Made by a program: the position numbers and the translations under genes
Source of the DNA: Candidatus Sulfomarinibacteraceae bacterium
Lineage (GTDB): Bacteria > Acidobacteriota > Thermoanaerobaculia > Thermoanaerobaculales > Sulfomarinibacteraceae
Reading direction: 5' to 3'
Assembly: GCA_963714885.1 (NCBI GenBank)
Contig: CAVQQV010000038.1
Coordinates: 65,086-129,085 of the forward strand
DNA length: 64,000 nt
Notes under the pieces: generated by a model
What the model was told of the DNA's origin: nothing
What the model saw: the letters and a program-made list of their open reading frames with translations, nothing else
Databases searched by the model: none
Shown here: piece by piece, positions 4,777 to 55,942 of the stretch
Position numbering within the stretch: the first letter of the stretch is position 1
Layout of the letters: each line of letters opens with the position of its first letter

Positions 4777-4808
4777 ATTTCGACTCGAATCCGGGTTAAA
4801 GTCGCAAA

Positions 4809-5765
4809 ATGGCATCACCCACGCCCCCGTTCCTCGAGCCCATCGAAGAGGTTCGATCCCGCGTATTGGAGTTGGAATCCGCCGGGACCTCCGGCCACGG
4901 GACCGAAGCCGACCTGCTGGCCGCCAAAAAAGAGCTTGACGCGGTGGTCAGACGAGTCTTCTCCCAGCTGACCCCGTGGCAGCAGTGCCAACTTGCGCGC
5001 CACCCCGACCGGCCGCACACGATGGCCTACACCCACAGTATCTTCACCGATTTCACCGAGCTTCATGGCGACCGCAGGTATGCAGATGACCCGGCGATCG
5101 TGGCTGGACTCGCGCGCTTCGAGGGAGACCCGGTGGTTGTGGTGGGGCACCAGAAGGGGAGGGACACGGCCGAGAAGCTCCGCCGGAATTTTGGCATGCC
5201 TCGACCCGAAGGCTACCGCAAGGCAATACGAATCATGAGCCTCGGCGCCCGCTTCAGGCGCCCGATCATCTCGTTCATCGACACCCCGGGTGCTTATCCC
5301 GGCATCGATGCGGAGGAGCGCGGACAGGCTGAAGCCATCGCCCACAACCTGATCGAGATGGCCGCCTTGTCGGTGCCGATCATCGTCGTGGTCACCGGCG
5401 AGGGCGGATCCGGCGGCGCGCTCGCGCTCGGCATCGGTGATCGCGTCCTGATGCTCGAGCACGCGATCTACTCGGTGATCTCTCCGGAAGGCTGCGCAGC
5501 CATCTTGTGGAAGGACCAGGCGCGGGCCGCCGATGCTGCTGCCGCCCTTCGCCTCACCGCCAAGGATCTCAAGGGCTTCAACGTCATCGACGAGATCATC
5601 CCGGAACCGATCGGCGGCGCCCACATGGATCCGGTGTTGATGGCCGACACCATCTCGACCGCGATCCGACGCAACCTCAAGGGATTGCGGAAACTCAAAC
5701 CCGAGGCCCTGGTGGCCCGGCGCCTCAAGAAGTTCCAGGCGATGGGCATCTTCAGCGACCGCTGA
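4809..5765 (+). CDS. accA: Acetyl-CoA carboxylase carboxyltransferase subunit alpha
   Basis: An intact 318-aa ORF with ARHPDRPHT, GHQKGRDTAEKLRRNFGMP.PEGYRKA, FIDTPGAYPGIDAEERGQAEAIA and GEGGSGGALA. Confidence 0.92.
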   Translation: MASPTPPFLEPIEEVRSRVLELESAGTSGHGTEADLLAAKKELDAVVRRVFSQLTPWQQCQLARHPDRPHTMAYTHSIFTDFTELHGDRRYADDPAIVAGLARFEGDPVVVVGHQKGRDTAEKLRRNFGMPRPEGYRKAIRIMSLGARFRRPIISFIDTPGAYPGIDAEERGQAEAIAHNLIEMAALSVPIIVVVTGEGGSGGALALGIGDRVLMLEHAIYSVISPEGCAAILWKDQARAADAAAALRLTAKDLKGFNVIDEIIPEPIGGAHMDPVLMADTISTAIRRNLKGLRKLKPEALVARRLKKFQAMGIFSDR

Positions 5766-5832
5766 AAAAAGGGCCGATGGACGTATCACACCCTCGCCCG
5801 GCCACTCGTCGGTTGTCGACCGGGGGCCCCCG

Positions 5833-7782
5833 ATGAGCGTGGGTTCCCGCCGGTGGATACGCCGGTTTTCGGCCCTGGCCATTGTTGCGGTACTGCTGGT
5901 CCTCGGTGGGCTGGTCGTCCAGCGTATCGAGCGGTTTCACCCACCCGTGCCGTCGCTGGACGACGACGCCGTTTCCGGCGGCAGCGCCGATCGGGCGGTT
6001 GGTGTCTACAGGGGCTTCGAGTTTGTCGAACGCGTGGCCGGAAAGAAGATCTTCGAACTCCTGTCGAAGCGGACCCTCGGACTGTCATCCGGTTGGCACG
6101 AAATCGAAGGGGTGCGGTTGCAGTTCTTCCGCGAAGGGGAGACCGGCCCGGTTCTGACCTGCGACGGCGCCCGTTTCAACATTCAGACGCGAGACGCGGA
6201 ACTCGGCGGAAGCATCCGGATCGATTTCCCGAGCGGCGCGAGCCTCACCACCGACGCCGGAAGCTTCGAAGCGAGTTCACGGCGGTTCACGGCCACCGCC
6301 GAAGTGTTGTTCGTGTCCGGGACGACCTTCGGGCGGGCGGATTCGGCAGCCTACGACCTGGAGCACGACGAAATCGTGCTCGAAAACGGTCTGACTCTGC
6401 GGACCGCGACCGGAGCCACGTTGTCGGCACCCAGCGCGATCTACAGCCGCGGCGAAGGCGTCATGTCCTTCCCATTGGGGGGACGGATGACGATGGGCCA
6501 ATCGGAGCTCGAGGCGCCCCTCATGCGGGTTGACCTCGAGCCCGACGACGGTCCGCCGCAACGGATCGAGCTCGATGGGGGAGTGACCGCTCGCTCCACC
6601 GCGCCCAACGGCGATGGTCTGGTCGTGGCCCGGATGGAGAAGATCGTTGCCGTGCGCGACGGTACGGGGCGTTGGCAGGTGGACGCAACCACCCATGGAC
6701 CGTGGGTCGATGTCCGATTCATCGGCGGCGAGGGGTACTACGAACGCGAACTCAAGGCGTGGGTGCTGCGCGGCGTCGTCGGCGACGAGGGCCTGATCAA
6801 CCTTCGCGCCGAAAACCGGGTCTGCATCAGGGAGGTTCCGACGGAGGGTCCGGTTCGGCTTGGGGAGGCGGAGGAGGCCCGGGTGTGGTTCTCCGAAGGC
6901 CAGGCCACCGACGTGGAGATGCTGAGAAACGTCGTGATCCAGGGAGAGGGCGTCCAGGGGAGGGGCTATCGGGCCCGCCTGTCCCCACAGGCGGGGCTGC
7001 TGATGCTCCACGGAGACCCGGCGGGGCCTGGACGCGTGCTGCTGCTCTCCGAACGCGGGCGCCTGAGCTGCGACCAGGCGCAGCTTTACAACAACGAAGG
7101 GCGATCCGAAGCCCGCGGCAACGTGCAAGGCCAGATCTTCAACGTGTCGTTGATCGGAAGATCAGCGGCGGACGCATCTCAACCCACCCATTTTGCGTCA
7201 GAGATCCTCGACGTGACCGACAAGGGGGGCATCTACCACCTGCGCGAGAACACCCGGTTGTGGCAGGGTCACCGCCTCTTGTTGGCGGATGACGTGGTGT
7301 ACCACCAGGATGCGGCGACGGTACGGGCGACCGGACATGTGCGGACCACCTTTCCGGCTTCGCAGTTGAACCTCGAGGGCGACGAGGGAGAGGACGTGGT
7401 GGTCGTGGCGAGATCGCTTGATTTCGACGACAACGAGGGCACCGCAATTTATCGCGGCAATGTTCGGTATTCGGATCCGGGTCACACGCTGGCGGCGGCG
7501 GAGTTGAGTGTGTTCTTCGACGATGCCAACCAGGTCACATCGGTTGAGGCCGTGGGATCGGTCGAGCTGGTGATCGTGGAAAGTGGCCGGCGTATGACGG
7601 GGCAGTTCGCGCGCCGGGAGGTCAAGACCCAACTGGTCACCATCACCGGGTCGCCCGTCCGGCTGACCGATCCCGGCGGAAATGAGGTCTCCGGGTCTTC
7701 GTTGACCTGGAATCAGGCCGATGGTACGGTCTCGGTCGCCGGAGGAACCGAAACCATCTACTACCCTGAGGAGACACCCTGA
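5833..7782 (+). CDS. Membrane-anchored OstA/LptA-like protein occupying the lptC-lptA position (possible LptC-LptA fusion)
   Basis: A 649-aa ORF with an N-terminal TM helix ([18 protein letters not shown]) followed by long beta-rich repeats. These repeats have the LptC/LptA flavour (..A..a.yd...d.i.L.g.V.l...g..l.a....y). It lies immediately upstream of lptB-rpoN. Confidence 0.5.
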
Positions 7783-23310: not shown

Positions 23311-24442
23311 GCGGCGCTTCCCCAATGTCGGCATGCCGACACCTGGCTGAGGCAAGCGCGTGGAATCTTCGCCTCACCGGGTGGAGATCGACACCGCGCT
23401 GGCCGGGGTGATTGCGGTTTGTCAGCAGCACCCAGATCCCCGCGCCCGAGGGTTCGGCCCACACCGAGACTCCGGTGAACCCGGTGTGTCCGAAAGCGGT
23501 GGCCGGCAAGGAGTCGCCGGCCGAACAGCCTCGGGTGGCGGCCATCTGCCAGCCCCATCCTCGTTCCTGCGCGAGCCCGCCCGTCTGTGACGTCACCGCC
23601 GGCCCGACCTCCTCGGACGTCAGGAGATTCGTGCCGCCACCACAGTATTCCGCCGTCAACCGCCGGACGCCGCGAACGGTGCCGAAGAGGCCAGCGTTCC
23701 CCGCCGCACCTCCAAAGAACCGGGCGTTGCCGTCATCCGGCAGCCCCCTTCCTACGGCCGGGATCCACCCCGGATCGAGACCGAGATCCAGCACCAGGCG
23801 CTGTTCGGCCAGAGCCCGCGAGGCTCCTCCGGCCAGCGAGTCCGGAGGGTGGAATCGGGGTTGAATCCGAGATCGTTCTCCAGGCCCGCCGGCACCAGCA
23901 CCCGGTTGCGAAACAGGCGTTCGAGATCAGAACCGGACACTTCTTCGAGCATCATACCGAGGATGATGAAACCCACACAGGAGTAGATCACCCGTTCGAC
24001 CGGGTCGGGACTCCAACTCGATTTGCCGCAGCACCTGCGCCAGCATTTGTGCGCCGGCCCTCGGCCAGACAGTAGAACGGCAGCCAGGCGGGGAGACCGG
24101 AGGAGTGGGTGAGGAGGTGGTGGATCTCGAGTTCGCCCACCGGAGATCTCGTGGTCTCGCGGAGCACCTCCCCCACCCTGGTGTCCGGCGCGAGAACGGC
24201 TTCTCGGAAGGCCAACAATGACAAGGTCGTGGTGACCAGGGGTTTGGTCAGCGACGCCAGGTCGAACCAGGTGTCGGTCGTGACATCGCGCGGGCGAGTC
24301 CCGAACTCTTCGCCGCCCCTCGACGCAACTCGACACTTCTCCCCCGGCGCGCCCCCACTCCGCGATCTGCGCCCGGAAAGCGCCCCGCCGCAACCGCTCG
24401 CGCCAGGAGTTCCCGCACTCTCTGATCTGCGCCTCCGGTCAC
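23297..24442 (-). pseudogene. Serine hydrolase (class C beta-lactamase/PBP4-like family), at least 5 frameshifts as assembled
   Basis: Fragments lie in three frames. They are [18 protein letters not shown] (24442 frame), [15 protein letters not shown] with the SxxK motif (23988..24827 frame), [22 protein letters not shown] (23752..24393 frame) and FGHTGFTGVSVWAEP...VLLTNRNHP (23297..23794 frame). Confidence 0.75.
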
Positions 24443-24827
24443 TTTTCGAGGTCCGTCGACCGGCGTCGGACGGTGGTTTTCGTCGACGTTGACGTAGGTG
24501 ATCTCGGCTTCGGTGACCTGGACCTCGCTCCTCCCGGTTCCAGTGACGGGCGGCGGAGACCTTGACCTTGACGGTGATCGAGGTCCGGCCCACCCGCACG
24601 AGCGAGGTGTAGAACGACACCAGATCGCCGACGAAGACCGGCTCCAGAAAGACGACCTCGTTCATGGCCACGGTCACCACCCGGTGCGCTCCCTGGAACA
24701 GGGCCTCCTCGGCCCCGGCCTGGTCCATATAGGACAGGATGACCCCACCGAAAATGGTGCCCGCAGGGTTGGTGTCGCGGGGCATCATGAGGACCCGGCT
24801 CTTGGGCTGGAAGCGGCTGTCGTCCAT
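24439..24827 (-). CDS. Acyl-CoA thioesterase (hotdog fold, YciA-like), C-terminal frameshifts as assembled
   Basis: Motifs present: [25 protein letters not shown] and [37 protein letters not shown]. The tail [23 protein letters not shown] lies in another frame. The inferred stop 24439-24441 overlaps the hydrolase GTG (GTGA). Confidence 0.75.
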
Positions 24828-27454: not shown

Positions 27455-28801
27455 TTATTCTTTAATTTCAACGATTTTTTTGCGACAAACGATTACGAGC
27501 TGATCTCTCCCCGGGATACCGAGTGATTTGAAGAGCGGGGACGCGGCGGCCGGGGCTGAACCCAGCGAGGCCAGCGTCGACCGGTACTCACGAAGGGCCC
27601 GGTTGGACCGTCCGTCCGCCTCGAGGGCGACCGCCAGCAGAAAGCGGATCTCGGGCACCCCCGGGTCGAGATACAAGGCCCCGCGATAGGCGTCGGCGGC
27701 GTCCTTGTATGCCGTCAATCGCGACGCGGCAAAACCCACCAGGGCGTGGGTCACCGGGTTCTCCGGGAAATCGTGCCGCAGCGTCAATGCAATCCCGCGC
27801 GCGGTTTCGAAATCGGCGGCCGTCAACGCATTCAGAATGAGGCGGATGCGCTCGTCCGGCGCCCGCTGATCCGCGGCCTCCTCGGACACGGCGGGCGGGA
27901 GCGCCTGGTCCGGCCCCCTGCGTCCGGAGTCGCCGGCGTTTCGCTGAACCGGTCGGGAGACACCGCCACCCGCTCGCAGATCGACGGCCGGGGCGGGCCA
28001 CCGGTAACAGAAACACGACCCGAGATCCCGCGGGCGAAGGGACGCATCGAGTGACAACAGGCTCTCGCTCGGGCCGAGGAACAAAACGCCGTCCGGCGCC
28101 AGCGACTGCTCGACGGTTTGAACGACCTTCCGCTGCTGCTCGGGCCGGAAATAGATCAGCACATTCCGTAAAAAAATCACGTCGAACGGGCCCTGTTCGA
28201 GAACCGCGTCGCGGTCGACCAGGTTCAACCTTCGATAGGCGATCCGGCCGAGCAGTTTCGGGTCCACCTGCCAGCGATCGTTGCAGCGGTTGAATCGGGA
28301 CGCCAGGACATCGGCAGGCACGGCAGCCACCGCGCGTTCGCCATAATGTCCGAGCCGGGCCTCGTCCAACGCCTGGTCATCGACATCGGTCGCGAGAATC
28401 GTCCAGTCCCAGGTGCTCACCACCGGGTGTGAGGCAAGGACTATGGCGAGCGTGACCGCCTCCTCACCACGCGCACAACCGGCACACCACACCTTGAGGC
28501 GACGGTCGCGTCGGATCGCCACCAGCTCCTCCAGGATCGTATGGCTCAGCGCATCCATCTGACCCCGGCCGCGGAACAGGTAGGACTCCTTGACGGTGAT
28601 TCGAGCGAGCAGGTGCCGCCATTCGGGAGAGTCGGACCTCACCGTCAACATGTCCAGGTACTCCTCGAACCCGGCCAGCCTCAAGGATGCGATCTGTTCA
28701 CGGGCGATGACCGCCAGCTGGCCGTAGTTCCGCGGAGAGACCACGAACCCACTCGCCTCCTCGATCATGCGGGCCAGTTCGGCGACCGCCGCGTCCATCA
28801 C
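27455..28801 (-). CDS. cheR: Chemotaxis protein methyltransferase CheR with C-terminal TPR domain
   Basis: ESYLFRG, LKVWCAGCARGEEAVTLAI and FDVIFLRNVLIYF are CheR SAM-MTase motifs. The C-terminal ~120 aa are TPR-like (AYKDAADAYRGALYLDPG). Confidence 0.88.
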   Translation of the reverse strand: MMDAAVAELARMIEEASGFVVSPRNYGQLAVIAREQIASLRLAGFEEYLDMLTVRSDSPEWRHLLARITVKESYLFRGRGQMDALSHTILEELVAIRRDRRLKVWCAGCARGEEAVTLAIVLASHPVVSTWDWTILATDVDDQALDEARLGHYGERAVAAVPADVLASRFNRCNDRWQVDPKLLGRIAYRRLNLVDRDAVLEQGPFDVIFLRNVLIYFRPEQQRKVVQTVEQSLAPDGVLFLGPSESLLSLDASLRPRDLGSCFCYRWPAPAVDLRAGGGVSRPVQRNAGDSGRRGPDQALPPAVSEEAADQRAPDERIRLILNALTAADFETARGIALTLRHDFPENPVTHALVGFAASRLTAYKDAADAYRGALYLDPGVPEIRFLLAVALEADGRSNRALREYRSTLASLGSAPAAASPLFKSLGIPGRDQLVIVCRKKIVEIKE

Positions 28802-29820
28802 CGGGCCCCTGATGCGTGGGTCAGAAGACGTCCTATCTGGGCCGGGGTCAGGGTGAAGGTCGCGGCACCCATTTCGATCGCCGCACGGGGCATTCCAAAG
28901 ACCGCGCAGCTCGCCGCGTCCTGGGCGATGGTGAGAAAATTCGCACGGCGGAGGTCAAAAAGACCAACCGCGCCGTCGGAGCCCATCCCCGAAAGTTGCA
29001 CGGCGGCCGCCGTGCCCGGTGGGTGGTCCAGAAGACTCCGGAACAGAGTCTCCACCGACGGGCTGTGGCCGTTGACCGGCGGCCCATTACGGTCCAACGC
29101 AAGGCTGCCATCCCTCCTGAGCACCATGTGTCCGCCGGCCGGAGCGAGACGCACCGAACCCGGCGCCAGCCGTTCCCCGTCGCGGGCGACCGCCACATCG
29201 AGCCCGCTCTCGGCCGCCAGCCACTCGGCGAGGACGGTTTCGAATCCCGCGGCGATGTGCTGGACGACAGCGATCCCGATCCCGGCGCCTCCAGCGAGAG
29301 CGCGCAGCAACTCGCACAAAGCACCGGGCCCCCCGGTCGACGCGCCGATGGCCACAAAGCGCAGTCCGCGCCGGATCGCCGGCACCTCAATGGGTTGGGC
29401 CGAACCGGGGTCATGGATGTCGGTTTTTTTGCAGACTTCGACGATCGCGGTCCCGAGCGCCCTCCCGAGATCGGCCCACCCGTCGGGGTGGTCGGGTTTG
29501 GGGTGGACCGCGATCACACCGAGGCCGTGGGCCGCAAAGGCGATGCGCGTGGTGTCGGTGCGGAGCGGTGGAATCATCGCGAAGATCGGCGTCCTTTCCA
29601 CCTCCGCCACCGCCTCGATCAGTTCGCGTCCGCCGAGACCCGCCAGATCGAGATCCATGACCAGCGCGTCTGGCCGCGTCCCGCGGACCAGCTCCACCAA
29701 CTTCACACCGTCATCGGTCTCGCCGACAATCTCGATCTTCTCGAACGCACCGAGAAGCCGCCGCAGGACGGTGCGCACGGTTGCCGAGCGGTCCGCCACT
29801 ACCAGCCGTACGCCGGTCAT
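28798..29820 (-). CDS. cheB: Protein-glutamate methylesterase/glutaminase CheB (REC + esterase)
   Basis: RLVVADRSATVR...DALVMDLDL is the REC domain. AIGASTGGPGAL, VVQHIAAGF, LSGMGSDG and FGMPRAAIE are CheB catalytic motifs. Confidence 0.9.
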   Translation of the reverse strand: MTGVRLVVADRSATVRTVLRRLLGAFEKIEIVGETDDGVKLVELVRGTRPDALVMDLDLAGLGGRELIEAVAEVERTPIFAMIPPLRTDTTRIAFAAHGLGVIAVHPKPDHPDGWADLGRALGTAIVEVCKKTDIHDPGSAQPIEVPAIRRGLRFVAIGASTGGPGALCELLRALAGGAGIGIAVVQHIAAGFETVLAEWLAAESGLDVAVARDGERLAPGSVRLAPAGGHMVLRRDGSLALDRNGPPVNGHSPSVETLFRSLLDHPPGTAAAVQLSGMGSDGAVGLFDLRRANFLTIAQDAASCAVFGMPRAAIEMGAATFTLTPAQIGRLLTHASGAR

Positions 29821-31828
29821 CCGTCGCCCGCCACCCGGCGGACCAATGCCACCAGTTCGCGGGCGTCGAGGCCCTGTTTCGTGAGGTAGGCGTCGGCACC
29901 CGCCTCGAGCCCGGCCAGCCGATCCGCCGGTCGGTCGAGGGTCGAAACGACCACGATCGGCAGGTCCGCAAACGCCGGGTCCTCGCGAATCGCCCGCGTC
30001 AGACCCAACCCGTCCATGCCGGGCATCTCGATGTCGGTGACCACGCAGTCCATCGGGCGGGAGGCGAGGGCGTGCAACGCGTCTTCGGCCGACCCGACGC
30101 CGGTGACCGCGATACCGGCATCCTCCAGGAGCCGGCGCACCATCTCCCGAGTGACGTCCGAGTCGTCCACCAGGAGCGCCCTGATGGGACGCACGGTGCG
30201 GCGCACGCCGTCCCGGCTCACCGGGTCGAACGGGGTCCCGAGACCGAGCCGCTGCAGCGACAGCACCGCCACCGGCCTGCCCGAGGCCAGCAGGGCAATT
30301 CCCTCCACCCCGGCAGGGGCGCCCGCCGCCGCCGGAATCGGGCGGACGATGACCTCTTCCTCCCCGACAACGTCATCGGCGACAACGCCGACAAAGGCCC
30401 CCCCGACGACCGTCTCCACCAGCACGGCGCCGCCTCTCGAGTCCTCGCCCGCGAGGTCTGAAAGGAACCTGGGGAAGATCGACTGTCCCCGGATCTCGAT
30501 TCTTCGCCGGCCGTTCTCCTCCGTGACGGCGCCCGGAGGCAGGCGGCGAAAGGCCTGGATCGGCGCCGCCGGCAGCGCGAGCTGGTGTTCGCCGACCCTG
30601 AGGACGAGGACGCGATCGCCGCGGCGGGCAATCGGGACCTCGACCGTCACCGTAGTCCCGCGCCCCAACTGCGACTCGAGCCACACGTCTCCGCCCACCG
30701 CTCGCACCGCGGCCGCGACGGCATCGAGACCGACCCCACGGCCCGAGACCTGCGACGTCTCGTCGCGGGTGGTGAAACCGGGGAGCAGCAGCAGGTGGAG
30801 AGCCTCCGCATCCACCAGACCGGCCGCCTCGGTCGGGCTCGATGAAGCCCCTCTCGACCGCCGCTGCGACAACTGATCCGGCCTCGATTCCGCGGCCGTC
30901 GTCGCGCACCACCAGACGGACCCGGTCGCCGTCGGTCGAGGCCTCGAGCCGCACCTCCGCGGTTTCGGCCTTGCCGGCCAGACGACGGTCTCCGGGCGTC
31001 TCCACTCCGTGGTCCACCGCGTTGCGCACGAGGTGGAGAAATGCCTCGCGCAGAGCATTCGAGATTCTCCGGTCGAGCTGGGCGTCGCCGGCGTCGGCGG
31101 TGACCTCGACCCGCTTGCCGAGCGAGTCCGCGAGCTCTCGCGCATGATCCGCGAGCAACCGCACGAATGGCCGGATCGGTTGGATCTGCAGGTGAAGTAA
31201 CGTGTCGAGCTGGCGGTCGGCCAAACGCCGGAGGATCCGCTGTCCTCCCTCGAGTTCGAGCCCCACCTGTCGCAACGACGTCGCGAGGGTCGCCAGCACC
31301 TGCTCCGGCGCGCGGTCGCCGACTCCGCGTTCGGCCAGCGTCGCCAACCTGAAAATGCGGTCGGCCAGACCCTCGGCCGCCACCGCGATCACCCGCAGCC
31401 TGGCCCCCCGGTCGGCAAGATCGTCGACCACCCCGGCCTTGACCCGCATGTTCTCGCCCGGTGCCCGCCGTTTCTTGGAGGTTGATCGCCGATCGGGCTG
31501 CGGAGCGCTGCTCTCTTCGGCTCCGGGAGCACCGCCTGAAAGCGACTCAACCAAGGTGGCGATCGCGGTGCAGCACGATGCCAGCTCGTCCCGTTGATCC
31601 GCGGCGTCTACCGCCGCGAGGTCCTCGGCGCGGTGGCACAGGTCGGAGATCTCTCCCGAGACCCATCATCCGGCTCGCGCCCTTGAGGGCGTGGAGCTCC
31701 CTCCGCAACCCGACCACGGCCAGGTCATCGGTCCCGATCCGGCCCACCAGCTCGATCACGCGTTCGAGGCGCTCCCCGGCCTCCTCGAGGAACAGCGCGA
31801 TCAGGTCAGCATCGTCTCGAGCGGTCAC
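29817..31828 (-). CDS. cheA: Histidine kinase CheA fused to a C-terminal receiver (2 frameshifts near 31650 and 30855)
   Basis: The Hpt domain is LRRELHALKGASRMMGL (31828 frame). HLVRNAVDHGVE (N box) and VVRDDGRGI lie in the 30373..31554 frame. SGRGVGLDAV, a CheW-like P5 domain and the REC domain (ALLVDDSDVTRE...TDIEMPGMDG) lie in the 29817..31145 frame. Confidence 0.88.
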
Positions 31829-31834
31829 CGCGGC

Positions 31835-33472
31835 TCAGATCTTGGTCCAGTTGCGGAGGTTCACGTCGACCCCGAGGGTCCCGATCATCGACCCCCGGTA
31901 ATCCTGGACCGCCACGGCGATAGTGAAACAGGGGTCTCCGGTGAGCAGGGATTCGTAGGCCGGCGTCACCGCCGACCGTCCGTCCCTCGTCACCGCCTGA
32001 TACCACGGGCGATCGGCGTAGGACTGACCGATCGCGACACTGCCCGGCAGACGGCGGTCCCCCACCCGCTCCCGGTTGACGCAGAATGCCACCATGGCAC
32101 CCGAGAGGTCCACGAGGTACGCCAGCTCGAGGAACGGACACTCTTCCAGGAGGTCTTCCAGAAGACCCTCCACCGCTTCGAGGTTGCCCGAGTAGTCGCG
32201 GAGCGCGATGGTCCATTTGAGCAGTTGGTGCCGCAGCGAGTGCTGTGAATCGATGCGAAAGCTCTGAGTCAGGAGCTGGATGGACAGGGCGAGTTGGTTG
32301 AGGCGTTCCGCGGCCTCGGTGTAGCGGTTGAGGCCGTCGGCGATGCGATGGATCACCTCCCCCACCTCGCGCAGCGTCCCGGCCACCTGGTCTGAAGCGC
32401 CGCGTTGCTCCTGGGTGGCCAGCGAGATCTCGCGGGCAGTCCGGGCGGTCTCGGTCAGCGCCCCGCGCAGCTCAGCGATGGCGTCCTGCGCCGACCGGCT
32501 CTGTTCGAGGACCTGATGGGCGGCCTTGCTCCCCTCTTCCGTCGCCAGCACCACGCCGCGGATCGAGTTGGTGAACTCGTCGAGGTGGGCGCGCACCGAG
32601 TCCACCGACTCGCGCGACCGTTCGGCCAGACGCCGCACCTCTTCGGCCACCACCGAAAATCGTTCGCCGTGCTCGCCGGCGGACGACGCTTCGATCGCGG
32701 CGTTCAACGACAGGATGTGGGTCTCCTGAGCAATCTCGGTGATCAGATCGAGCACCCGGTAGATCTCCCGCGAGCGGCTGCCGAGGGTGTCGGCGCGGCC
32801 GGCGATGGCGTCCATGTGCTGTCGCACGGCGTCCACCCCGGCGACCGCCGACTCCACCGAAGCGGCCCCCTCGTCTCCGGCGGTCTCGGAGCGGGCCGCC
32901 AACTCCGCCTGCGCCGCCGAGTTGGCGGCGATCTGACCGGCGGTCCTCGCCAACTCTTCTGTGCTGGCGGTGATTTCGACCACTGCCGCCGCCTGCTGGC
33001 TCGACGCCGACGCCAGCTCGGAGGAGGTCCGTTTCACGGTTCCCGCCGCCCCTGCGACCTCGACCGAGGCCGACTGAATCTGCTGAATCAGGGCCGCCAG
33101 AGCGCGACTCGCACCGCGGACGGCGTCGCGCATCTCGTCCGGCAGTTCGGCCACCGGCGCTGCAGCCGCCACGAGGTCGCCGGAACGGAGCTCGTCGAGC
33201 GCGAGCGCAAGGGCGGCGTTCTGGCTTGCGAAAGTCTGTTCGAGCTCGCGCAGGCGCCTGCCGGCACGCCACTGCGGGAGGTGGACCGCAAACACGTAGA
33301 TTGTGATCGCCAACAACCCGATCACCAGAAAGGCCCTGATGTAGAGCTCACCGTGGGGTTGATCGGCCGAGGCCTCCAACAGGCCGCCTCCTGCGAGAAC
33401 CAGACCCACCAGCAGGGCGGCGCCCAACCACCGGCGCAGCGCTGCCGAAAATTGACCCTCAAGCATCTCCAC
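31835..33472 (-). CDS. Methyl-accepting chemotaxis protein with minimal periplasmic loop and C-terminal Cache/PAS-like domain
   Basis: Two TM helices are separated by about 14 aa. The MA signalling hairpin is EIAQETHILSLNAAIEASSAGEHGERFSVVAEEVRRLAERS. The C-terminal ~150 aa contain a YADRPWYQ-type motif. Confidence 0.88.
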   Translation of the reverse strand: MEMLEGQFSAALRRWLGAALLVGLVLAGGGLLEASADQPHGELYIRAFLVIGLLAITIYVFAVHLPQWRAGRRLRELEQTFASQNAALALALDELRSGDLVAAAAPVAELPDEMRDAVRGASRALAALIQQIQSASVEVAGAAGTVKRTSSELASASSQQAAAVVEITASTEELARTAGQIAANSAAQAELAARSETAGDEGAASVESAVAGVDAVRQHMDAIAGRADTLGSRSREIYRVLDLITEIAQETHILSLNAAIEASSAGEHGERFSVVAEEVRRLAERSRESVDSVRAHLDEFTNSIRGVVLATEEGSKAAHQVLEQSRSAQDAIAELRGALTETARTAREISLATQEQRGASDQVAGTLREVGEVIHRIADGLNRYTEAAERLNQLALSIQLLTQSFRIDSQHSLRHQLLKWTIALRDYSGNLEAVEGLLEDLLEECPFLELAYLVDLSGAMVAFCVNRERVGDRRLPGSVAIGQSYADRPWYQAVTRDGRSAVTPAYESLLTGDPCFTIAVAVQDYRGSMIGTLGVDVNLRNWTKI

Positions 33473-33923
33473 TCCCTTCGACCGACCGGCCGCCTTCGAA
33501 CAGAACCCCGGTGTTGATCACCTTGATCGTCTCGCCCTCGAGATCGACTGTGCCCGCAACCAGGCTGTCGCAGGGACCGTCAGAGATCTCTCCCGCCAGG
33601 TTCTGCACCCGCAGGGCCTCGTTGACCGCAAGACCGACGGCGGTCCAGGAGTCCCGTTTACCGCGCCCGAGGATCACCGTCGTCCGGTGGTGGGACTGGG
33701 GCGCCTCCCCCTCGGCCAGCGAGTGGAGATCGAGAATCGCCAGCGGCTCGCCGGCGTACTGCGCGAGCCCCAGGAGATGGGGTTGTCCGCCGGGCACCGG
33801 GTAACAGGCCAGCCCGCGGACCACGTGCCGTACCTGGGCTGCGGGCACGGCGTAGCACGAACCGCCGGAACGCACCAGAAGAAAGCGTCGATCTCCCTCA
33901 GCAACAGGGACTTCGATGTCCAT
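33459..33923 (-). CDS. cheW: Chemotaxis coupling protein CheW
   Basis: FLLVRSGGSCYAVPAAQVRHVV, LLGLAQYAGEPLAILDL and LAVNEALRV form a CheW-like domain. ATG 33923 has a GAGG upstream. The listed ORF begins at 33977, which would overlap the upstream gene by 41 nt. Confidence 0.85.
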   Translation of the reverse strand: MDIEVPVAEGDRRFLLVRSGGSCYAVPAAQVRHVVRGLACYPVPGGQPHLLGLAQYAGEPLAILDLHSLAEGEAPQSHHRTTVILGRGKRDSWTAVGLAVNEALRVQNLAGEISDGPCDSLVAGTVDLEGETIKVINTGVLFEGGRSVEGSGDA

Positions 33924-33936
33924 GGGCCTCAGGATA

Positions 33937-34815
33937 TCACCCCGCCTCACGACCTCCGTCGCGAACCTCGGAGGCACCCGCCGCCGATCCGGATTCAGAC
34001 CAGTCGAGCTCCGATCCCCGCAGGGAATGCGGAATCAGGAAGACCCCCATCATCACAACCCAGCCGAGCGCCACGGCCACCCTCGTGCGCAGGCCCTTGA
34101 CGGCCGCAACGGTGGCGGGAAGCCATGCCAGAAAGGCGATCAGGGTCTTGTTGTCGGTCAGATCGGTACCAAAGGGCCACCCCGTCCAGTAGGCTCCGAA
34201 GGCGAATTTTTGAACCAAGGGGCCGAGGAAGAGCCCCCCTATCACCAGCAGCCCCATGGCGGTGAGCACCAGACCGCGTCCGCGCGGCGCGCTCCGACGA
34301 GCGACTTCGAAAAGAGCGCGGGTCGAAACCAACATGCTGGCAAACATCGCCAGAATATGAGGCACCAGAACTGCCGCCGGGACCGGATCCCGGAATCGGG
34401 CGACCACCGTTTCACCGGGCGGTACCTGCACCTCGATCCCGCCCGTCTCGACGCGGATCGTGTACTCGACCTTGGCGGCCGCCGGCAGACGGGAGATCGA
34501 GGCTTCCAGACGGCCTGACGAGGACGGTTCCATCACCATTGTCCGGTACGGCTCATCGGTGGGGTACCTCCGCCACTCGACCGCAACCCGGGCGTCACCC
34601 GCCGGCTGCGGCAGTGAGATCACGAGCGAGTCCCGGCCCTCGTTCGACCGCGGCAACCGGTAACGCAGTTCCTGCCCGTCCGCAAGCGTCACCGCGCCGC
34701 GAGACGGATGGCTGGGACCGGTGATCCTCTGAAAGAAGGCCAGCGCCACAGTTACGATGAACGCGGCGACCCACAGCGCTGCCGACAGCCCCCGCCCTTT
34801 TCGCTGTCCCATCAA
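33937..34815 (-). CDS. Hypothetical integral membrane protein (N-terminal anchor, ~130-aa extracytoplasmic beta-rich domain, about 5 TM helices)
   Basis: A 292-aa ORF packed tightly between the cDPG-synthetase-like gene (stop 34816) and cheW. Hydrophobic segments include ALWVAAFIVTVALAFF, VLVPHILAMFASMLV, LVLTAMGLLVIGGLFLG, LIAFLAWLPATVAA and LGWVVMMGVFLI. I recognise no family. Confidence 0.6.
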   Translation of the reverse strand: MMGQRKGRGLSAALWVAAFIVTVALAFFQRITGPSHPSRGAVTLADGQELRYRLPRSNEGRDSLVISLPQPAGDARVAVEWRRYPTDEPYRTMVMEPSSSGRLEASISRLPAAAKVEYTIRVETGGIEVQVPPGETVVARFRDPVPAAVLVPHILAMFASMLVSTRALFEVARRSAPRGRGLVLTAMGLLVIGGLFLGPLVQKFAFGAYWTGWPFGTDLTDNKTLIAFLAWLPATVAAVKGLRTRVAVALGWVVMMGVFLIPHSLRGSELDWSESGSAAGASEVRDGGREAG

Positions 34816-36138
34816 TCAGCGGTTTTCGAACACCCGGCCGACCATCTCCTCGATGACGCCGGGCTCGACCTCTTCAAGCTCATAGCGGACATTGGCGATG
34901 GGCTTGTTGACCTTGATGATCCGCTTGAGGTCGATGGGCGTCCCCTCGACGACCACGTCGGCATCGGTTGCGTTGATGGTTTCCTCGAGCTCGCGAACCT
35001 GCTGCTCGCCATACCCCATGGCGGGCAGGATCTTGGCTGCATTCGGGAACTTGGCGTAGACCTCCTTGATCGAGCCGACAGCGTACGGGCGCGCATCGAC
35101 GATCTCGGCTGCGCCCGCCTGTTTGGCGGCAAACCAGCCGGCGCCGTACTCCATCCCGCCGTGAGTCAGGGTCGGCCCATCCTCCACCACCAGCGCCCTT
35201 TTGCCCGCGATCAGCTTCGGGTCATCGACGGTGATCACGGATCGGCATTTGATGACCTTTGCCGCAGGGTTGGCCGTGTGGCAGGTGTCGAGCACCTGCT
35301 CCACCTTGATCGGGTCCGCGGTGTCGACCTTGTTGACGATCAAAAGGTGTGAGATCCGGAGGTTGGTCTCGCCGGGGTAATAGGACACCTCGTGGCCCGC
35401 CCGGTGGGGATCGACGAGCGTGATGTGGAGGTCCGGACGGTAGAACGGCGTGTCGTTGTTGCCGCCGTCCCACAGAATCACATCGGCCTCCTTCTCGGCC
35501 TCACGCACGATCTTCTCGTAGTCCACACCGGCATAGACCACAAAACCGTTGTCGATGTGCGGTTCGTACTCCTCGCGCTCCTCAATCGTGCACTGGTGGC
35601 GGTCGAGGTCCTCGTAGGTCTCGAAACGCTGGCACGCTTGTTTGGCGAGATCGCCGTACGGCATGGGGTGGCGGATCGCGACGACCCTCTTGCCCATCGC
35701 CTTGAGCATTCTCGACACGTACCGGGTGGTCTGTGATTTGCCGACGCCGGTGCGCACCGCGGTAATGGCGATCACGGGCAGGGTCGACTCGATCATCGTC
35801 TTGGTGGCCGAGCAGATGCCGAAGTGCGGCCCCCAGCCGATGACCTGGCTGCCCTTGTTCATCACGTAGGTGTGGGGCACATCGGAGTAGCTGAACCACA
35901 CCTCGTCCACGTCGTTTTCTTTGATCACCTTTTCCAGGTCACTTTCGGGGAGAATCGGGATCCCATCCGGATACAGCGAACCGGCGAGCACCGGAGGGTA
36001 AACGCGATCTTCGATATCGGGAATCTGGGTGGCGGTGAAGGCGACGACGTCGTAGTCCTCGTTGTCTCTGAACAGGCAGTTGAAGTTGTGGAAATCTCGT
36101 CCAGCCGCGCCCATGATGACGACCTTGGTTCGTGCCAT
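34816..36138 (-). CDS. Cyclic 2,3-diphosphoglycerate synthetase-like P-loop protein (COG2403-type)
   Basis: ATG 36138 is preceded by AGGAGG. MARTKVVIMGAAGRDFHNFN, the P-loop ITAVRTGVGKSQTT, VILWDGGNND and LIVNKVD resemble archaeal cDPG synthetase and the 'predicted GTPase' family. The listed ORF extends to 36435 through repeat DNA. Confidence 0.7.
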   Translation of the reverse strand: MARTKVVIMGAAGRDFHNFNCLFRDNEDYDVVAFTATQIPDIEDRVYPPVLAGSLYPDGIPILPESDLEKVIKENDVDEVWFSYSDVPHTYVMNKGSQVIGWGPHFGICSATKTMIESTLPVIAITAVRTGVGKSQTTRYVSRMLKAMGKRVVAIRHPMPYGDLAKQACQRFETYEDLDRHQCTIEEREEYEPHIDNGFVVYAGVDYEKIVREAEKEADVILWDGGNNDTPFYRPDLHITLVDPHRAGHEVSYYPGETNLRISHLLIVNKVDTADPIKVEQVLDTCHTANPAAKVIKCRSVITVDDPKLIAGKRALVVEDGPTLTHGGMEYGAGWFAAKQAGAAEIVDARPYAVGSIKEVYAKFPNAAKILPAMGYGEQQVRELEETINATDADVVVEGTPIDLKRIIKVNKPIANVRYELEEVEPGVIEEMVGRVFENR

Positions 36139-36221
36139 GATTGTCCTCCTAAGGGAACCATCGTTGTGGCGTCCTCGCCCGATGGTGAGCCGCCGGGTGA
36201 AGCTGAACCGGCAGCGGGGGG

Positions 36222-36230
36222 ATTCTATCA
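36222..36230 (-). promoter_or_regulatory. Extended -10 element candidate (TGATAGAAT) for the cDPG-synthetase-like/che operon
   Basis: The reverse complement of 36222-36230 is TGATAGAAT (TGnTAnAAT). It lies 84 nt upstream of ATG 36138 and 16 nt downstream of heptamer array A. Confidence 0.35.
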
Positions 36231-36246
36231 CTGCCCCCGAGCCCCC

Positions 36247-36281
36247 ATTTCGGATTTCGGATTTCGGATTTCGGATTTCAG
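36247..36281. repeat. Heptanucleotide tandem array A: (ATTTCGG)x4 + ATTTCAG
   Basis: The plus strand reads ATTTCGG ATTTCGG ATTTCGG ATTTCGG ATTTCAG followed by GCCC. It is intergenic. Confidence 0.95.
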
Positions 36282-36498
36282 GCCCGTCAACGGCCTGCCC
36301 AGGGGAGAGCGTCAGACGACTCCCCCACGGGCGGTCAGTCGCAGAAAGCGCTCCGCCGCACGCGGGCCGTTTCCGCGCGTCCTTCCCGAGAGGAGCCAGG
36401 CACGCGGCCCGTCGGACGGGCCGGATGCCAGGCACCTCCGCCGCACGCGGTCACACCAACGTGAGCACTCAGGTGTTTCCCGTCGGTGGGAGGCTGGT

Positions 36499-36535
36499 CC
36501 GAAAATTCCGAAATCCGAAATCCGAAATCCGAAAT
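36499..36535. repeat. Heptanucleotide tandem array B: CCGAAAATT + (CCGAAAT)x4, the inverted complement of array A
   Basis: 36508-36535 is the exact reverse complement of 36247-36274 (28 nt). The array ends 4 nt before the guaA stop codon (36540-36542). Confidence 0.95.
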
Positions 36536-36539
36536 CTGC

Positions 36540-38073
36540 CTACTCCCACTCAATCGTGCCCGGGGGCTTCGAGGTCACGTCGTAGACCACCCGGTTGATC
36601 CCGGCGACCTCGTTGACCACCCGGCGGGCGATGCGATCGAGGATCTCGGGGGGGAAACGATACCAGTCGGCGGTCATGAAATCGGTGGTGGTGACGGCTC
36701 TCACGGCCAGCACGTTCTCGTAGGTCCGCGAGTCGCCCATGACGCCGACGCTCTTCACCGGCAACAGCACGCACAGGGCTTGCGAGATCTCGTCGTACAG
36801 TCCGTTCGAGCGGATCTCCTCGATGACGATGGCGTCGGCCTCCTGGAGGGTGTGCACGCGTTCGCGGGTGACCTCGCCGAGGACCCTGACCGCCAGACCG
36901 GGCCCCGGGAAGGGGTGCCGCCAGACGAAGTCGTGGGGCAGACCGAGCTCCTCCCCCACCCTTCGTCACCTCGTCCTTGAAGAGGTCACGCAGCGGTTCG
37001 ACCAGCTCCAGACCGAGCCGGTCGGGCAGACCGCCGACGTTGTGGTGGGTCTTGATGACCGCCGCCGTGCCGCGCACTCCGGAGCATTCGATGACGTCCG
37101 GATAGAGGGTCCCCTGCGCCAGAAACCGGGCGTCGGGGAATCGTGCCGCCTCTGTCTCGAAGACCTCCACGAACTCGCGGCCGATGATCTTGCGTTTGGT
37201 TTCCGGGTCGTCCACGCCTTCGAGGGCTGAAAAGAACCGGTCGGCGGCGTCGACGCGGTCGAGCTTGAGCCCAAACTCCTCGAAGCTGCGCTCCACCGCG
37301 TCGCCCTCGTCCTGCCGCAGCAGCCCGGTATCGACAAAGATCGGGACCAGACGGTCGCCGACGGCCTCGCGCAAGAGCATCGCGGTCACCGACGAATCCA
37401 CCCCGCCTGAAACGCCGCAGATCACCCGGCCTTCCGTCAGACGGTCGGCGAGCTTCGCCACCAACTCGTGGCGGATCACCGACGGGCTCCAGTCGCGGCG
37501 CGCGCCGGCGAGGGCGATGAACTGCTCGAGCATCCGCGTCCCGTGGGGGGTGTGCCGGACCTCGGGGTGGAACTGCAGACCCACGAATCGCCTTTTCGGG
37601 TCGAAGATGGCCGCCACCTCGGTGGTGGGAGTACGGGCCAGGACCTCAAAACCATCGGGGACCCGTTCCACCAGATCGCCGTGGCTCATCCACACCGGCT
37701 GTTTCCGGGGCGTACCGATAAACACCGGCTCCTCGACGACGACCTCGAGCTCCGCGAAACCGTACTCGCGGTGCGACGAGGCCCGCACGTGCCCGCCGAG
37801 GTCGCGCGCCATGAGGTGGAGGCCGTAGCAGATACCCAGAACCGGAACACCAAGAGAGAAAACCGTCCCGTCGACCTGCGGCGCCCCGTCCTCGAAGACG
37901 CTGGCCGGCCCGCCCGAAAGCACAACCGCAATCGGCGCCAAAGCCTCGATCTCACGTGCCGGAAGGTCGCCGCGTTCGATGACCGTCTTGACCCCAAGCT
38001 CCCGCAAACGGCGCGTGATCAGCTGCGTGTACTGCGACCCGAAATCGAGGATGAGAATGACCTGGTGCTGCAT
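36540..38073 (-). CDS. guaA: GMP synthase (glutamine-hydrolysing), one frameshift near 36960
   Basis: [21 protein letters not shown] and GICYGLHLM form the GATase domain. [13 protein letters not shown] is the PP-loop. The C-terminal dimerisation domain ([12 protein letters not shown]...[10 protein letters not shown]) lies in ORF 36540..36959. The start ATG is at 38073. Confidence 0.93.
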
Positions 38074-38130
38074 GCAAGCTCCCCGGCGCGGTGACGCCAG
38101 CTTTTGTTGGGGCGGAGGATAACAGACACA

Positions 38131-38167
38131 GAATTCGGAATTAGGAATTAGGAATTCGGAATTTCGG
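38131..38167. repeat. Heptanucleotide tandem array C: GAATTCG GAATTAG GAATTAG GAATTCG GAATTTC GG
   Basis: Five 7-nt units lie 58-94 nt upstream of the guaA ATG. The terminal CGGAATTTCGGCCC resembles the ends of arrays A and B. Confidence 0.9.
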
Positions 38168-38425: not shown

Positions 38426-38929
38426 ATGATCAACTGGCTCCGCCGTGTCACTCCCGACCTCTTCCTCGCCGCCGTGGTGGCCCTCCTCATCACTCTTGCT
38501 CTCGACAAGCTCGACACGATCGAAAGCGACCGGATCGTCGGCGGCGTGCGGTGGGCGGCCCGAGACGGACTGACGATCGACGAACGGATCGGGGTCTTCG
38601 AGCAGTTCATCCGGCGTTCGATCTTCGTTCATCAACGGGCGGCGATCGGGGTCCTCGAGCAGTCCATCCGGCGTTCCATCTTCTTTCATCAACCGGTTCT
38701 GGTGGCCGGCGCGGCGATCATTGTCGGATTCATCTGCCGCAATCGACGCTGGGCGTGGCTGACCGCCATCATGGCGATCGTGCCTGCGTTGCTCATGGGC
38801 GCAGGGTTCCTGGTCGACTGCCCCCCTCCCCGGTTCGGTCGTGATGGCGTCCTATGTGACATTGGCGGTCTTCCTCGCCTCCCTCAGCGTTGTCGTCCGA
38901 AACCGATTGGTCCCCGCAGTTGCGCGTGA
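38426..38929 (+). CDS. Hypothetical membrane protein containing an in-frame 57-nt tandem duplication
   Basis: A 167-aa ORF with TM-like segments (LFLAAVVALLITLAL, VLVAGAAIIVGFI, LTAIMAIVPALLMGAGFLV). The C-terminus is uncertain. After the C-run at 38821-38830 another frame encodes a further TM-like segment (SYVTLAVFLASLSVVV). Confidence 0.45.
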   Translation: MINWLRRVTPDLFLAAVVALLITLALDKLDTIESDRIVGGVRWAARDGLTIDERIGVFEQFIRRSIFVHQRAAIGVLEQSIRRSIFFHQPVLVAGAAIIVGFICRNRRWAWLTAIMAIVPALLMGAGFLVDCPPPRFGRDGVLCDIGGLPRLPQRCRPKPIGPRSCA

Positions 38930-38959
38930 ATCACCGTGAGTCCGGCCGGTCACCGGTAT

Positions 38960-38988
38960 TTGACCTGACCCCCGAGCGAAGCTAGGAT
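38960..38988 (+). promoter_or_regulatory. Sigma70-type promoter candidate for the nuo cluster (TTGACC-17 nt-TAGGAT)
   Basis: TTGACC lies at 38960-38965 and TAGGAT at 38983-38988, 37 nt upstream of the nuoA ATG. This is sequence match only. Confidence 0.35.
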
Positions 38989-39024
38989 TCTCTCCGGATT
39001 ACTTGGTCGTTCAAAGGAAGCTTC

Positions 39025-39440
39025 ATGGCGCAACAGTTTCTGCCGGTGCTCATGATCTCTGCTGGTGGCCGGTACCTTCGCCGCGCTGCTGCTCGGCATC
39101 GCCGCCCTGCTCGGCCAACGGACGCGCCAGCGGACCACGGCCAGGGCCGAAAGCTACGAGTCGGGCGTGCCGTTGCTCGACCGCGCCCGCAAGCGGATCT
39201 CCATCAAGTTCTACCTCGTCGCGCTGGTCTTTGTCGTGCTCGACGTCGAGGTGGCCTTTCTCTATCCATGGGCCGTCAACTACCGCGATCTCACGAGCAC
39301 CGGTTCCCTGGTGCCGTTGTGGGACATGGTGGCCTTTCTCGGCCTCCTCGCGCTGACCTACGCCTATCTCTGGCGCAAGGGCGTCTTCGACTGGGGCCGG
39401 CGACGGTCGCCTGCGCCCGAAGAGGGACACCGCTCCATGA
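39025..39440 (+). CDS. nuoA: NADH-quinone oxidoreductase subunit A (2 frameshifts as assembled)
   Basis: MAQQFLPVLMI lies in the 39025 frame. AGTFAALLLGIAALLG...YESGVP...KFYLVALVFVVLDVEVAFLYPWA...YLWRKGVFDW lies in the 39065 frame. A third frame ends at TGA 39438-39440 and overlaps the nuoE ATG (ATGA). Confidence 0.85.
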
Positions 39441-39975
39441 CCGAGGCGTCGACGACCACCCCTCACCGTCGCGCCAGCCGACGAAGTCGCGGAGGTCGTT
39501 TTCGACGACGTCGATGGAGCGGGAGATCGACGCCATCTGCAGCCGCTATCCGGAGACCAAGCGCGGTGCGGCGTTGTTGCCGGTGCTGTGGCTGTGCCAG
39601 GAAAAGTGGGGCTGGATCTCGCCGGGAATCATGCGAGCCGTCGGTGAGCGCCTCGAGCTCGCGCCCGCCTTCGTCGAGGGCGTCGTCACCTTCTACACCA
39701 TGTACCAGCGGCGGCCCCCGGGCCGCTACCTCCTCCAGGTCTGCACCACCCTGTCGTGCCAGCTGTGCGGCACCCCAAGCCTCGTGGAGCACCTGAAGAA
39801 GAAGCTCGGCATCGGTTTCGGCGAGACCACACCGGACGGCAACTTCACCCTGGTGGATGTTCAATGTCTCGGCGCCTGTGGTGAGGCGCCGGTCCTCCAG
39901 ATCAATAACGACTACTACACGGATCTCAACCCCGAGACGCTGGAGACCCTCCTCGACGGGCTCGCCTCGCAATGA
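39437..39975 (+). CDS. nuoE: NADH-quinone oxidoreductase subunit E (N-terminal frameshifts as assembled)
   Basis: REIDAICSRYPETKRGAALLPVLWLCQEKWGWI, LQVCTTLSCQLCG and VQCLGACGEAPVLQINNDYY are present (2Fe-2S Cys pattern). The N-terminal ~25 aa require frame changes near 39465 and 39510. Confidence 0.85.
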
Positions 39976-55513: not shown

Positions 55514-55570
55514 ATCTCAAGACGTTCCTGGGTCTTGATCTGACACCTCGTCGACCCTAAACTCGGCATC

Positions 55571-55942
55571 GTGGGGCGCCGAATCCTGATCGTCGACGAC
55601 GAGCCGTACATCCTGCGCATCTTGTCGTTCAAGCTCCGCCGGGAAGGTTTCACGACCTTCGAGGCGGAGTCCGCCGAGGCGGCCGAGTCTCTGCTCGGGG
55701 AACACGAGATCGATCTGGTTCTGCTCGACGTCGCCCTGGCGACGCCGACCAACGGCTTCGATCTCGCGGCAAAGCTGCGCCGGAACTCGCGAACCCAACA
55801 CCTTCCGATCATCATGCTGACCGCCAGGGGCTTTGCCACGGACGTCCTCCGCGGCCGCGAGGTCGGTGCGGCGGGCTACATCACGAAGCCGTTCACCGCC
55901 GAGGAAGTGGTGCGCCGGGTCCAGTCACTGCTCGACCCGTGA
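55571..55942 (+). CDS. Single-domain CheY-like response regulator
   Basis: RILIVDDEPYILR, DLVLLDVAL (phospho-Asp), IIMLTA and GYITKPF are present. The start is GTG. Confidence 0.88.
   Translation: MGRRILIVDDEPYILRILSFKLRREGFTTFEAESAEAAESLLGEHEIDLVLLDVALATPTNGFDLAAKLRRNSRTQHLPIIMLTARGFATDVLRGREVGAAGYITKPFTAEEVVRRVQSLLDP

Follow-up and report, generated by a model that had tools for sequence, protein, structure and literature searches.

A COG2403-family gene with a conserved leader and a Wsp-like chemosensory module as two probable, separable units in a Thermoanaerobaculia-type gene neighbourhood

Do the two genes that directly precede a chemosensory (Che) module belong to its pathway, or are they only its neighbours? 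The question is raised by a 64,000-nucleotide (nt) stretch from a Candidatus Sulfomarinibacteraceae bacterium (GenBank assembly GCA_963714885.1, contig CAVQQV010000038.1, positions 65,086 to 129,085 of the forward strand), which was analyzed in full and is called the window here. A first-pass annotation, made from the letters of this stretch without database searches, described a seven-gene operon on the minus strand. Its first two genes, encoding a COG2403-like P-loop protein and a membrane protein, were proposed as candidates for the input or output of the pathway encoded by the other five. This proposal was not supported by our results, as the two genes are separable from the che genes in relatives and the module has a sensor-like domain of its own. 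With moderate confidence, we favor two separable head-to-tail units lying in a conserved Thermoanaerobaculia-type neighborhood. The second unit is a Wsp-like che unit that would have its own promoter. The features concerned are the following.

36222..36230, minus strand: extended -10 promoter-like element TGATAGAAT of the COG2403-like gene (TGnTAnnAT; in the same place in 13 related loci)
36139..36221, minus strand: conserved 5' leader of the COG2403-like gene, from alignment of the related loci
34816..36138, minus strand: COG2403-family P-loop protein, 440 amino acids (aa); in Pfam a weak CobW-type P-loop match only
33937..34812 (TTG alternative start at 34815), minus strand: membrane protein, 291 aa; no match in Pfam
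33931..33939, minus strand: promoter-like element TGATATCCT, overlapping the membrane-gene stop, 7 nt before the cheW ATG
33459..33923, minus strand: cheW, 154 aa; Pfam CheW, E=1.4e-15; start in agreement with relatives (146-152 aa)
31835..33466, minus strand: mcp, encoding a methyl-accepting chemotaxis protein (MCP), 543 aa; Pfam MCPsignal, E=2e-28; MCP matches in the PDB
29817..31828, minus strand: cheA-REC hybrid kinase gene, frame-broken; Pfam Hpt, HATPase_c, CheW and Response_reg
28798..29820, minus strand: cheB, receiver (REC) plus methylesterase, 340 aa; Pfam Response_reg and CheB_methylest, E=5e-52; NCBIfam PRK12555
27455..28801, minus strand: cheR with C-terminal TPR, 448 aa; Pfam CheR, E=1.5e-46; weak TPR matches at residues 352-411

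The first line of evidence is gene order in relatives. We compared 17 distinct loci that carry the COG2403 gene, the window included, all of Thermoanaerobaculia type. The 16 relatives, designated by L numbers, were gathered through COG2403 homologues, by scanning whole genomes with a membrane-protein profile, and incidentally. The shared order is guaA, the COG2403 gene, the membrane-protein gene, cheW, mcp, cheA-REC, cheB and cheR where present, a convergent RNaseH-like gene and scpAB. A neighborhood search of this kind had been proposed in the first-pass annotation as a check on the link. The outcome is divided: che genes do follow the COG2403 gene in 14 of the 17 loci, but they are absent in three, and the parts can be separated. 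In L085 the COG2403 and membrane-protein genes are followed at once by the RNaseH-like gene, and che genes are absent. L009 has the COG2403 gene, a PAS-HisKA-HATPase-REC kinase gene and the membrane-protein gene, with no che genes within 10 kb. In L088, COG2403 is followed by SpoIIE and SSF genes, and both the membrane-protein gene and the che genes are missing. The membrane-protein gene is also lacking in L087 (2/17 loci in all), where the che genes come directly after COG2403. An opposite-strand FKBP gene separates COG2403 from the membrane-protein gene in L086. Genes cheB and cheR are both missing in L002, L004, L021 and L089, and L007 has cheR without cheB. Each element of the shared order is individually dispensable across the 17 loci.

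The genes that flank the cluster, guaA upstream and the RNaseH-like gene with scpAB downstream, are kept to the same degree as the che linkage. Gene guaA was seen upstream in 13 of the 17 loci; the contigs of L006, L009 and L087 start just upstream of COG2403, and L090 has guaA. Since these flanking genes are equally conserved, gene order alone is no mark of a functional unit. The linkage is better described as a clade-level arrangement, given the dispensable parts and some 70 distant homologues of the membrane protein that have no COG2403 or che neighbors. The slot between COG2403 and the membrane-protein gene holds a PAS-PAS-HisKA-HATPase-REC kinase gene in L009 (1653-3677), L021 (7861-9816) and L161 (about 4540-6660, inferred there from a gap of the same size). 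This hybrid kinase is a second, independent signaling gene, found at the same slot in a deeper branch of the clade.

The second line of evidence concerns the ends of the units. In seven relatives (L002, L004 and L086-L090) an intrinsic terminator, a stem-loop with a T-run, follows the COG2403 gene, which is monocistronic in these loci. The element TGATAGAAT had been described as the only promoter-like element of the cluster; it is present as described, but a second one, TGATATCCT, lies just before cheW.

The leader behind TGATAGAAT is structured. It contains a hairpin, P1 (36189-36215), with an 8-bp stem and an invariant 11-nt loop, TTCAGCYTYAC, and three of the eight pairs show compensatory changes (RNAalifold). 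A second hairpin follows, variable in sequence and apparently covarying, and then GGAGG-N6-ATG. Of the 17 fetched relative loci that bear COG2403, 15 have the loop motif, once per COG2403 locus. This count includes L003, which duplicates L002; an exact match is missing from L088 and L161. There were no occurrences in the other fetched loci. The leader is found at the same position in L001, L002, L004-L009, L021, L085-L087, L089, L090, L106 and L161. When metagenomes were scanned with the loop motif GGTTCAGCYTYACCCG, L106 and L161 were the only true instances among the 120 matches listed. The other 118 listed look like chance, having no adjoining COG2403 homologue and, in nearly all cases, no stem of 7-8 bp, and these matches give no measure of the distribution of the leader. 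Rfam has no family matching the leader; searches of the whole window at the gathering threshold and of 36100-36560 at an E-value threshold gave no meaningful match. The leader is a candidate for a new cis-regulatory RNA specific to the COG2403 gene, and this unclassified conserved hairpin may merit separate study.

Tandem heptamer arrays were observed directly upstream of promoter-like -10 elements in the window (36245-36280, 36500-36537 and 38131-38165). They also occur in L005 (8366-8560), upstream of COG2403 in L001, L004, L007 and L008, and upstream of cheW in L006. At a given locus the heptamer varies from genome to genome: CGAAATC/GATTTCG in the window, TGCATCC/GGATGCA in L005, ATTCCTC in L001 and L007, TAATTCA in L004 and AAAACTC in L008, and the window array before guaA has AATTCCG/T. 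The guaA-COG2403 spacer has a heptamer array on either side, the two in inverted orientation, both in the window and in L005.

The third line of evidence is the element before cheW. Twelve of the 14 che-bearing loci share a motif, TGnTA(T/A)(C/G)CT, placed 6-9 nt ahead of the cheW start. It has the form TGnTAT[C/G]CT in the window, L001, L002, L004-L008, L021, L089 and L090, and L161 carries the variant TGCTAACCT. The flanks of the motif cannot be aligned, and its distance is fixed relative to the cheW start but not relative to the stop codon upstream. Within the whole window, TGNTATNCT has just two matches on both strands; the second, at 38116-38124, is upstream of guaA and is also kept in relatives. 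In L002 (11315-11388), L004 (11318-11416) and L089 (10315-10384) the terminator is followed by TAGAAT-N6-7-ATG before the membrane-protein gene, a pattern which suggests that leaderless transcripts are common in the clade. Element TGATATCCT is probably the extended -10 of a separate che promoter that would give a leaderless or near-leaderless cheW transcript.

Several points weigh against a separate che promoter. The motif near cheW could be something other than a promoter. No terminator lies between the membrane-protein gene and cheW, the junction between COG2403 and the membrane-protein gene is only 3 nt, and all seven genes may be transcribed together. The features expected of a polycistron are found in the window: one strand, short or overlapping junctions and no internal terminator. 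Most of the layout had been read correctly in the first-pass annotation. The open reading frame (ORF) list agrees with it on seven head-to-tail minus-strand ORFs from 36138 down to 27455, in order, strand and place. It was also right that the COG2403-like stop (TGA, 34816-34818) is followed by the membrane-gene TTG (34815) and ATG (34812), that cheW begins with the ATG at 33923, after a membrane-gene stop at 33937-33939, that 6 nt separate the mcp stop (31835) from the cheA GTG (31828), and that cheA/cheB (29817-29820) and cheB/cheR (28798-28801) overlap by 4 nt. One junction was corrected: cheW and mcp had been said to overlap by 14 nt, and the overlap is rather 8 nt, as the more likely mcp start is ATG 33466, which has GGAG upstream and gives 543 aa, a length shared with relatives.

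Could the seven genes, then, be one operon driven only from the promoter at 36222-36230, with the cheW motif acting as a regulator site or as a translational-coupling element? The gaps of 3 nt and 13 nt without a terminator favor it, and a strict sigma-70 consensus scan of the window found no promoter before cheW; indeed it gave neither a sigma-70 promoter nor a terminator at any of the junctions. Such a scan is too strict for elements of the TGnTATCCT type, and the element before cheW emerged only through the relatives. In the first-pass annotation, a terminator or an independent promoter shown between 33923 and 34816 was to count against the link. Comparison with relatives supplied a promoter-like motif at 33931-33939, and no terminator was found in the window. 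A single operon of this kind is nevertheless unlikely in our judgment: the motif is at a fixed distance from the cheW start and not from the membrane-gene stop, the same motif precedes guaA at a variable distance, as a promoter would, and in relatives a terminator sets COG2403 apart from what follows. Some transcription from upstream into the che genes is likely even so, because there is no terminator and only a 13-nt gap before cheW.

What kind of Che module is this? The set had been called complete, and the domains of CheW, MCP, CheA-REC, CheB and CheR-TPR are all found with Pfam, but cheA as written is split over three frames. The third cheA frame segment carries a C-terminal Response_reg domain (E=2e-24), and relatives share the CheA-REC architecture. 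The CheR entries of L090 and L001 likewise list TPR_Slam or TPR_16. CheR-TPR fusions are reported predominantly from clusters for alternative cellular functions (ACF), along with multidomain response regulators (PMC3447774). In L087 (7976-9418) and L090 (12839-14272) a REC-GGDEF gene, WspR-like, lies between cheB and cheR. The module would accordingly be of the ACF, Wsp-like (non-motility) type. Against this assignment, it is made by architecture only, and a gene for an output, REC-GGDEF or other, is missing from the window. The scan of window ORFs gave no GGDEF gene, and the 4-nt overlap of cheB and cheR leaves no place for one between them. With NCBIfam, the CheB, CheR and MCP matches were generic only and below their cut-offs. 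The earlier statement that the window holds no flagellar, pilus or other output genes agrees with our scan, which gave housekeeping genes and no motility genes. The response regulator is thus encoded elsewhere or lost. A stand-alone receiver-domain protein is encoded at 55544-55942 on the plus strand, adjoining ileS-lspA-lgt, with its position conserved in L002 and L004; it might be a phosphotransfer partner, although it has no linkage to the che cluster.

The MCP had been described as lacking a periplasmic sensor. Its two N-terminal transmembrane (TM) segments are indeed separated by a loop of only about 10 aa, but a Cache/PDC-like domain was found at the C-terminus. It spans residues 401-540 (about 140 aa; window 31835-32266 for residues from about 401 to 543), matches dCache_1 with E=7e-8, below the Pfam cut-off, and MCP-like_PDC_1 with E=1e-4, and is listed for the MCPs of all relatives. 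No further TM segment follows the signaling domain; this module is presumably cytoplasmic, and it is a candidate for the sensor. To our knowledge, a cytoplasmic C-terminal Cache-like sensor is an unusual receptor layout. The argument that the module lacks an input and an output is weakened by this domain and by the REC-GGDEF genes of L087 and L090.

Taken in sequence, the two units could work as follows. In unit 1, the strongly conserved COG2403-family gene would be transcribed from its own extended -10 promoter with a structured leader and, in this genome, would be translationally coupled (TGA-TTG-ATG) to the membrane-protein gene. Unit 2, with cheW, mcp, cheA-REC, cheB and cheR-TPR, would start from the promoter that overlaps the membrane-gene stop, probably with a leaderless cheW mRNA, and read-through from unit 1 would add to its transcription. 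The MCP may sense through its C-terminal cytoplasmic Cache/PDC-like domain, its membrane segments or both. CheA-REC would then pass phosphate to a response regulator, which in relatives may be the REC-GGDEF diguanylate cyclase, and CheB and CheR-TPR would provide adaptation.

The membrane protein is the upstream product for which a tie to the module is easier to imagine. Its predicted architecture is an N-terminal TM helix, a periplasmic immunoglobulin (Ig)-like beta-sandwich (residues 37-141) and a four-helix TM bundle (AlphaFold2 model, pLDDT 93). The family comprises 2772 matches in 715 clusters at 50% identity, and ranges over Acidobacteriota and phyla of the FCB group. No Pfam or NCBIfam family covers the window protein and none is shared among 70 diverse members, in which scattered matches occur in one or two members each. 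A search of the PDB with the family profile gave nothing meaningful, and Foldseek matched the model to generic Ig and carbohydrate-binding module (CBM) folds only, through the Ig-like domain, with the TM bundle unmatched. Invariant positions are H152, Q201, the loop WTGxPFGxDLTDNKT, IPHSxxGSE and, in the sandwich, K114, Y117 and R139; D217, T219, D220, K222 and S263 are also named as invariant, and H262 is nearly so. By the positive-inside rule and the model, all these residues would face the periplasm.

As an accessory sensor, such a protein would supply the missing input of the MCP from its Ig-like domain and periplasm-facing site, through contact of membrane segments; as a target, it would be acted on by the module. 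In favor of one or the other, the gene is immediately upstream of cheW in 13 of the 14 che-bearing loci despite large divergence (46-81% identity of the membrane protein), an adjacency that would also fit a functional tie and in this respect tells against two independent units. The MCP loop of only 10 aa and the placing of the invariant residues in periplasmic segments point the same way, and so does the PAS histidine kinase, a second signaling gene, beside the membrane gene in L009, L021 and L161. But L087 lacks the membrane gene and has a che module all the same, while L085 and L009 keep the membrane gene with che genes absent. A conserved promoter-like element stands before cheW itself, and the MCP has a sensor-like domain of its own. 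Moreover, around about 70 distant homologues (36-49% identity, at least 8 phyla, among them Ignavibacteriota, Bacteroidota, Aminicenantes, Gemmatimonadota, Zixibacteria, Calditrichota and Eisenbacteria), neither COG2403 nor che genes occur within 10 kb. Their neighbors are heterogeneous (M28 peptidase, OPT transporter, Dxs, SDR), and clustering of the neighbors showed no conserved partner hinting at function. We regard the sensor or target role as quite unlikely, and the chance of any functional link of the membrane protein to the module as slim.

If a Wsp-like module had been recruited beside this widespread, uncharacterized membrane protein and used it as an envelope-side sensor or target, which seems rather improbable, it would give a first functional handle on the family (Ig-like domain, 4-TM bundle, invariant His/Asp/Lys) and an example of an MCP that gets periplasmic input through a separate membrane partner. 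Likewise, the link proposed in the first-pass annotation would, if true, assign a signaling role to two uncharacterized and strongly conserved proteins. The evidence points instead to ordinary clade-level synteny, in which the presence of the upstream genes is independent of the che genes.

A different doubt concerns cheA itself. The interval 29817-31828 measures 2012 nt, a length not divisible by 3, and its three frames encode Hpt, the N-terminal half of the HATPase, and the rest of the HATPase with CheW and REC. In a DNA alignment with L005, L007, L001 and L006 the window has exactly two extra single bases, at about 31655 and 30831, which none of the four shares. In relatives cheA is intact (670-682 aa), and so is guaA (510 aa). 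The closest representative genome, L005 (84-89% DNA identity), served as the reference for indels. Against it, no single-base deletion in the coding regions of the window goes uncompensated, whereas at least 15 single-base insertions do. They lie in guaA (36966), in the RNaseH-like gene (27076), in the nuoA-E region (six at 38820-39511) and in a beta-lactamase-like gene (several), with listed positions also at 23840-24527 and 41169, and are not tied to homopolymer runs. As an observation in its own right, an insertion-only pattern resembles the error of unpolished long-read assemblies.

Because the same single-base insertions run through guaA, nuo and other genes, the two cheA breaks are most likely assembly errors and not pseudogenization. 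Two frameshifts in the sequence as given might mean that cheA is a true pseudogene and that the Che module of this genome is decaying. This is very unlikely, as the insertions are strongly biased and of the same kind in guaA, several nuo genes and the RNaseH-like gene; without the two extra bases the CheA protein is 90-96% identical to that of L005, the three segments joined give the full domain set with no internal stop, and the other che genes are intact. Real frameshift mutations in cheA are a minor alternative. Programmed frameshifting was also considered and judged less likely than assembly error, since the same insertions hit guaA, nuo and other genes.

Finally, the COG2403-like enzyme might be the output or input of the pathway, for instance if Che signaling controlled its production or consumption of a phosphorylated metabolite. 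Its position upstream of the che genes in 14/14 che-bearing loci, L087 without a membrane gene included, could suggest such a role. We consider this highly improbable, since the protein is 81-95% identical across the clade with or without che genes (L085, L088, L009), the gene comes with a promoter and a leader of its own, joined in seven relatives by a terminator, L086 has an opposite-strand gene between it and the rest, and its adjacency to guaA is almost as constant as that to the che genes.

With two separable units as the preferred reading, the cluster is best annotated as such. The Che module is recognizably of Wsp/ACF type, probably with a tie to cyclic di-GMP in relatives. The genes cheA, guaA and several nuo genes need polishing before pseudogene claims are made in this assembly. 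Extended -10 promoters at a position suited to leaderless transcripts appear to be in use in this clade. The rest of the window, which has a G+C content of about 65%, contains iPGM, accA, lptD/A, rpoN, hpf, PTS genes, rapZ, miaB, lptFG, scpAB, guaA, the nuo operon, a Ser/Thr kinase gene, ileS and the stand-alone receiver gene; a search for tRNAs in the window found none.

Three known systems offer a comparison. The first is the cyclic 2,3-diphosphoglycerate (cDPG) synthetase (cDPGS) of Methanothermus fervidus (8ork, 8oru, 9sxb; PMC10690619). The COG2403-like protein is 82-95% identical to proteins from metagenome-assembled genomes of Thermoanaerobaculales and Holophagae. A profile of these COG2403 proteins matches M. 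fervidus cDPGS 9sxb (E=5e-8), with the P-loop and the following domain collinear and the GVGKS (Walker A) aligned with the P-loop of 9sxb. For the AlphaFold2 model (pLDDT 83), the best full-length fold matches in the PDB are cDPGS 8oru/8ork (Foldseek, E=2.5e-16), followed by LpxK, HypB and MeaB. The earlier cDPG-synthetase-like label thus holds good as remote homology. The lengths are similar (about 440 aa here, 436-460 aa in cDPGS), but structure-based identity is just 14% and the sequence match spans two segments. The bacterial protein is a remote cDPGS homologue, and the cDPGS name on relatives is an NCBI annotation label; PMC10690619 gives hyperthermophilic methanogens as the only known source of cDPG. 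A literature search for COG2403 found nothing relevant.

The second comparison is with promoters of leaderless mRNAs. In these, described in Actinobacteria and Deinococcus, the -10 element lies about 7 nt upstream of the start codon. The TGnTATCCT element resembles them in its position 6-9 nt before cheW, with no conserved Shine-Dalgarno between. Unlike the known cases, the window element lies partly inside the upstream coding sequence.

The third is the Wsp system of Pseudomonas (WspA-F, WspR), the ACF prototype; for chemotaxis in Sulfomarinibacter or Thermoanaerobaculia themselves, nothing relevant was found in the literature. The gene order differs from that of Wsp, the window has one CheW only and no REC-GGDEF, the MCP lacks a periplasmic domain and has a C-terminal Cache/PDC-like domain instead, and the host is acidobacterial. 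Shared with Wsp are a CheA with a C-terminal receiver, CheR-TPR, CheB and CheW, a single dedicated membrane MCP, and the lack of motility genes nearby. Some relatives come closer still: L087 and L090 have a REC-GGDEF protein like WspR, and L087 has a second short CheW-like ORF, as in the pair WspB/WspD.

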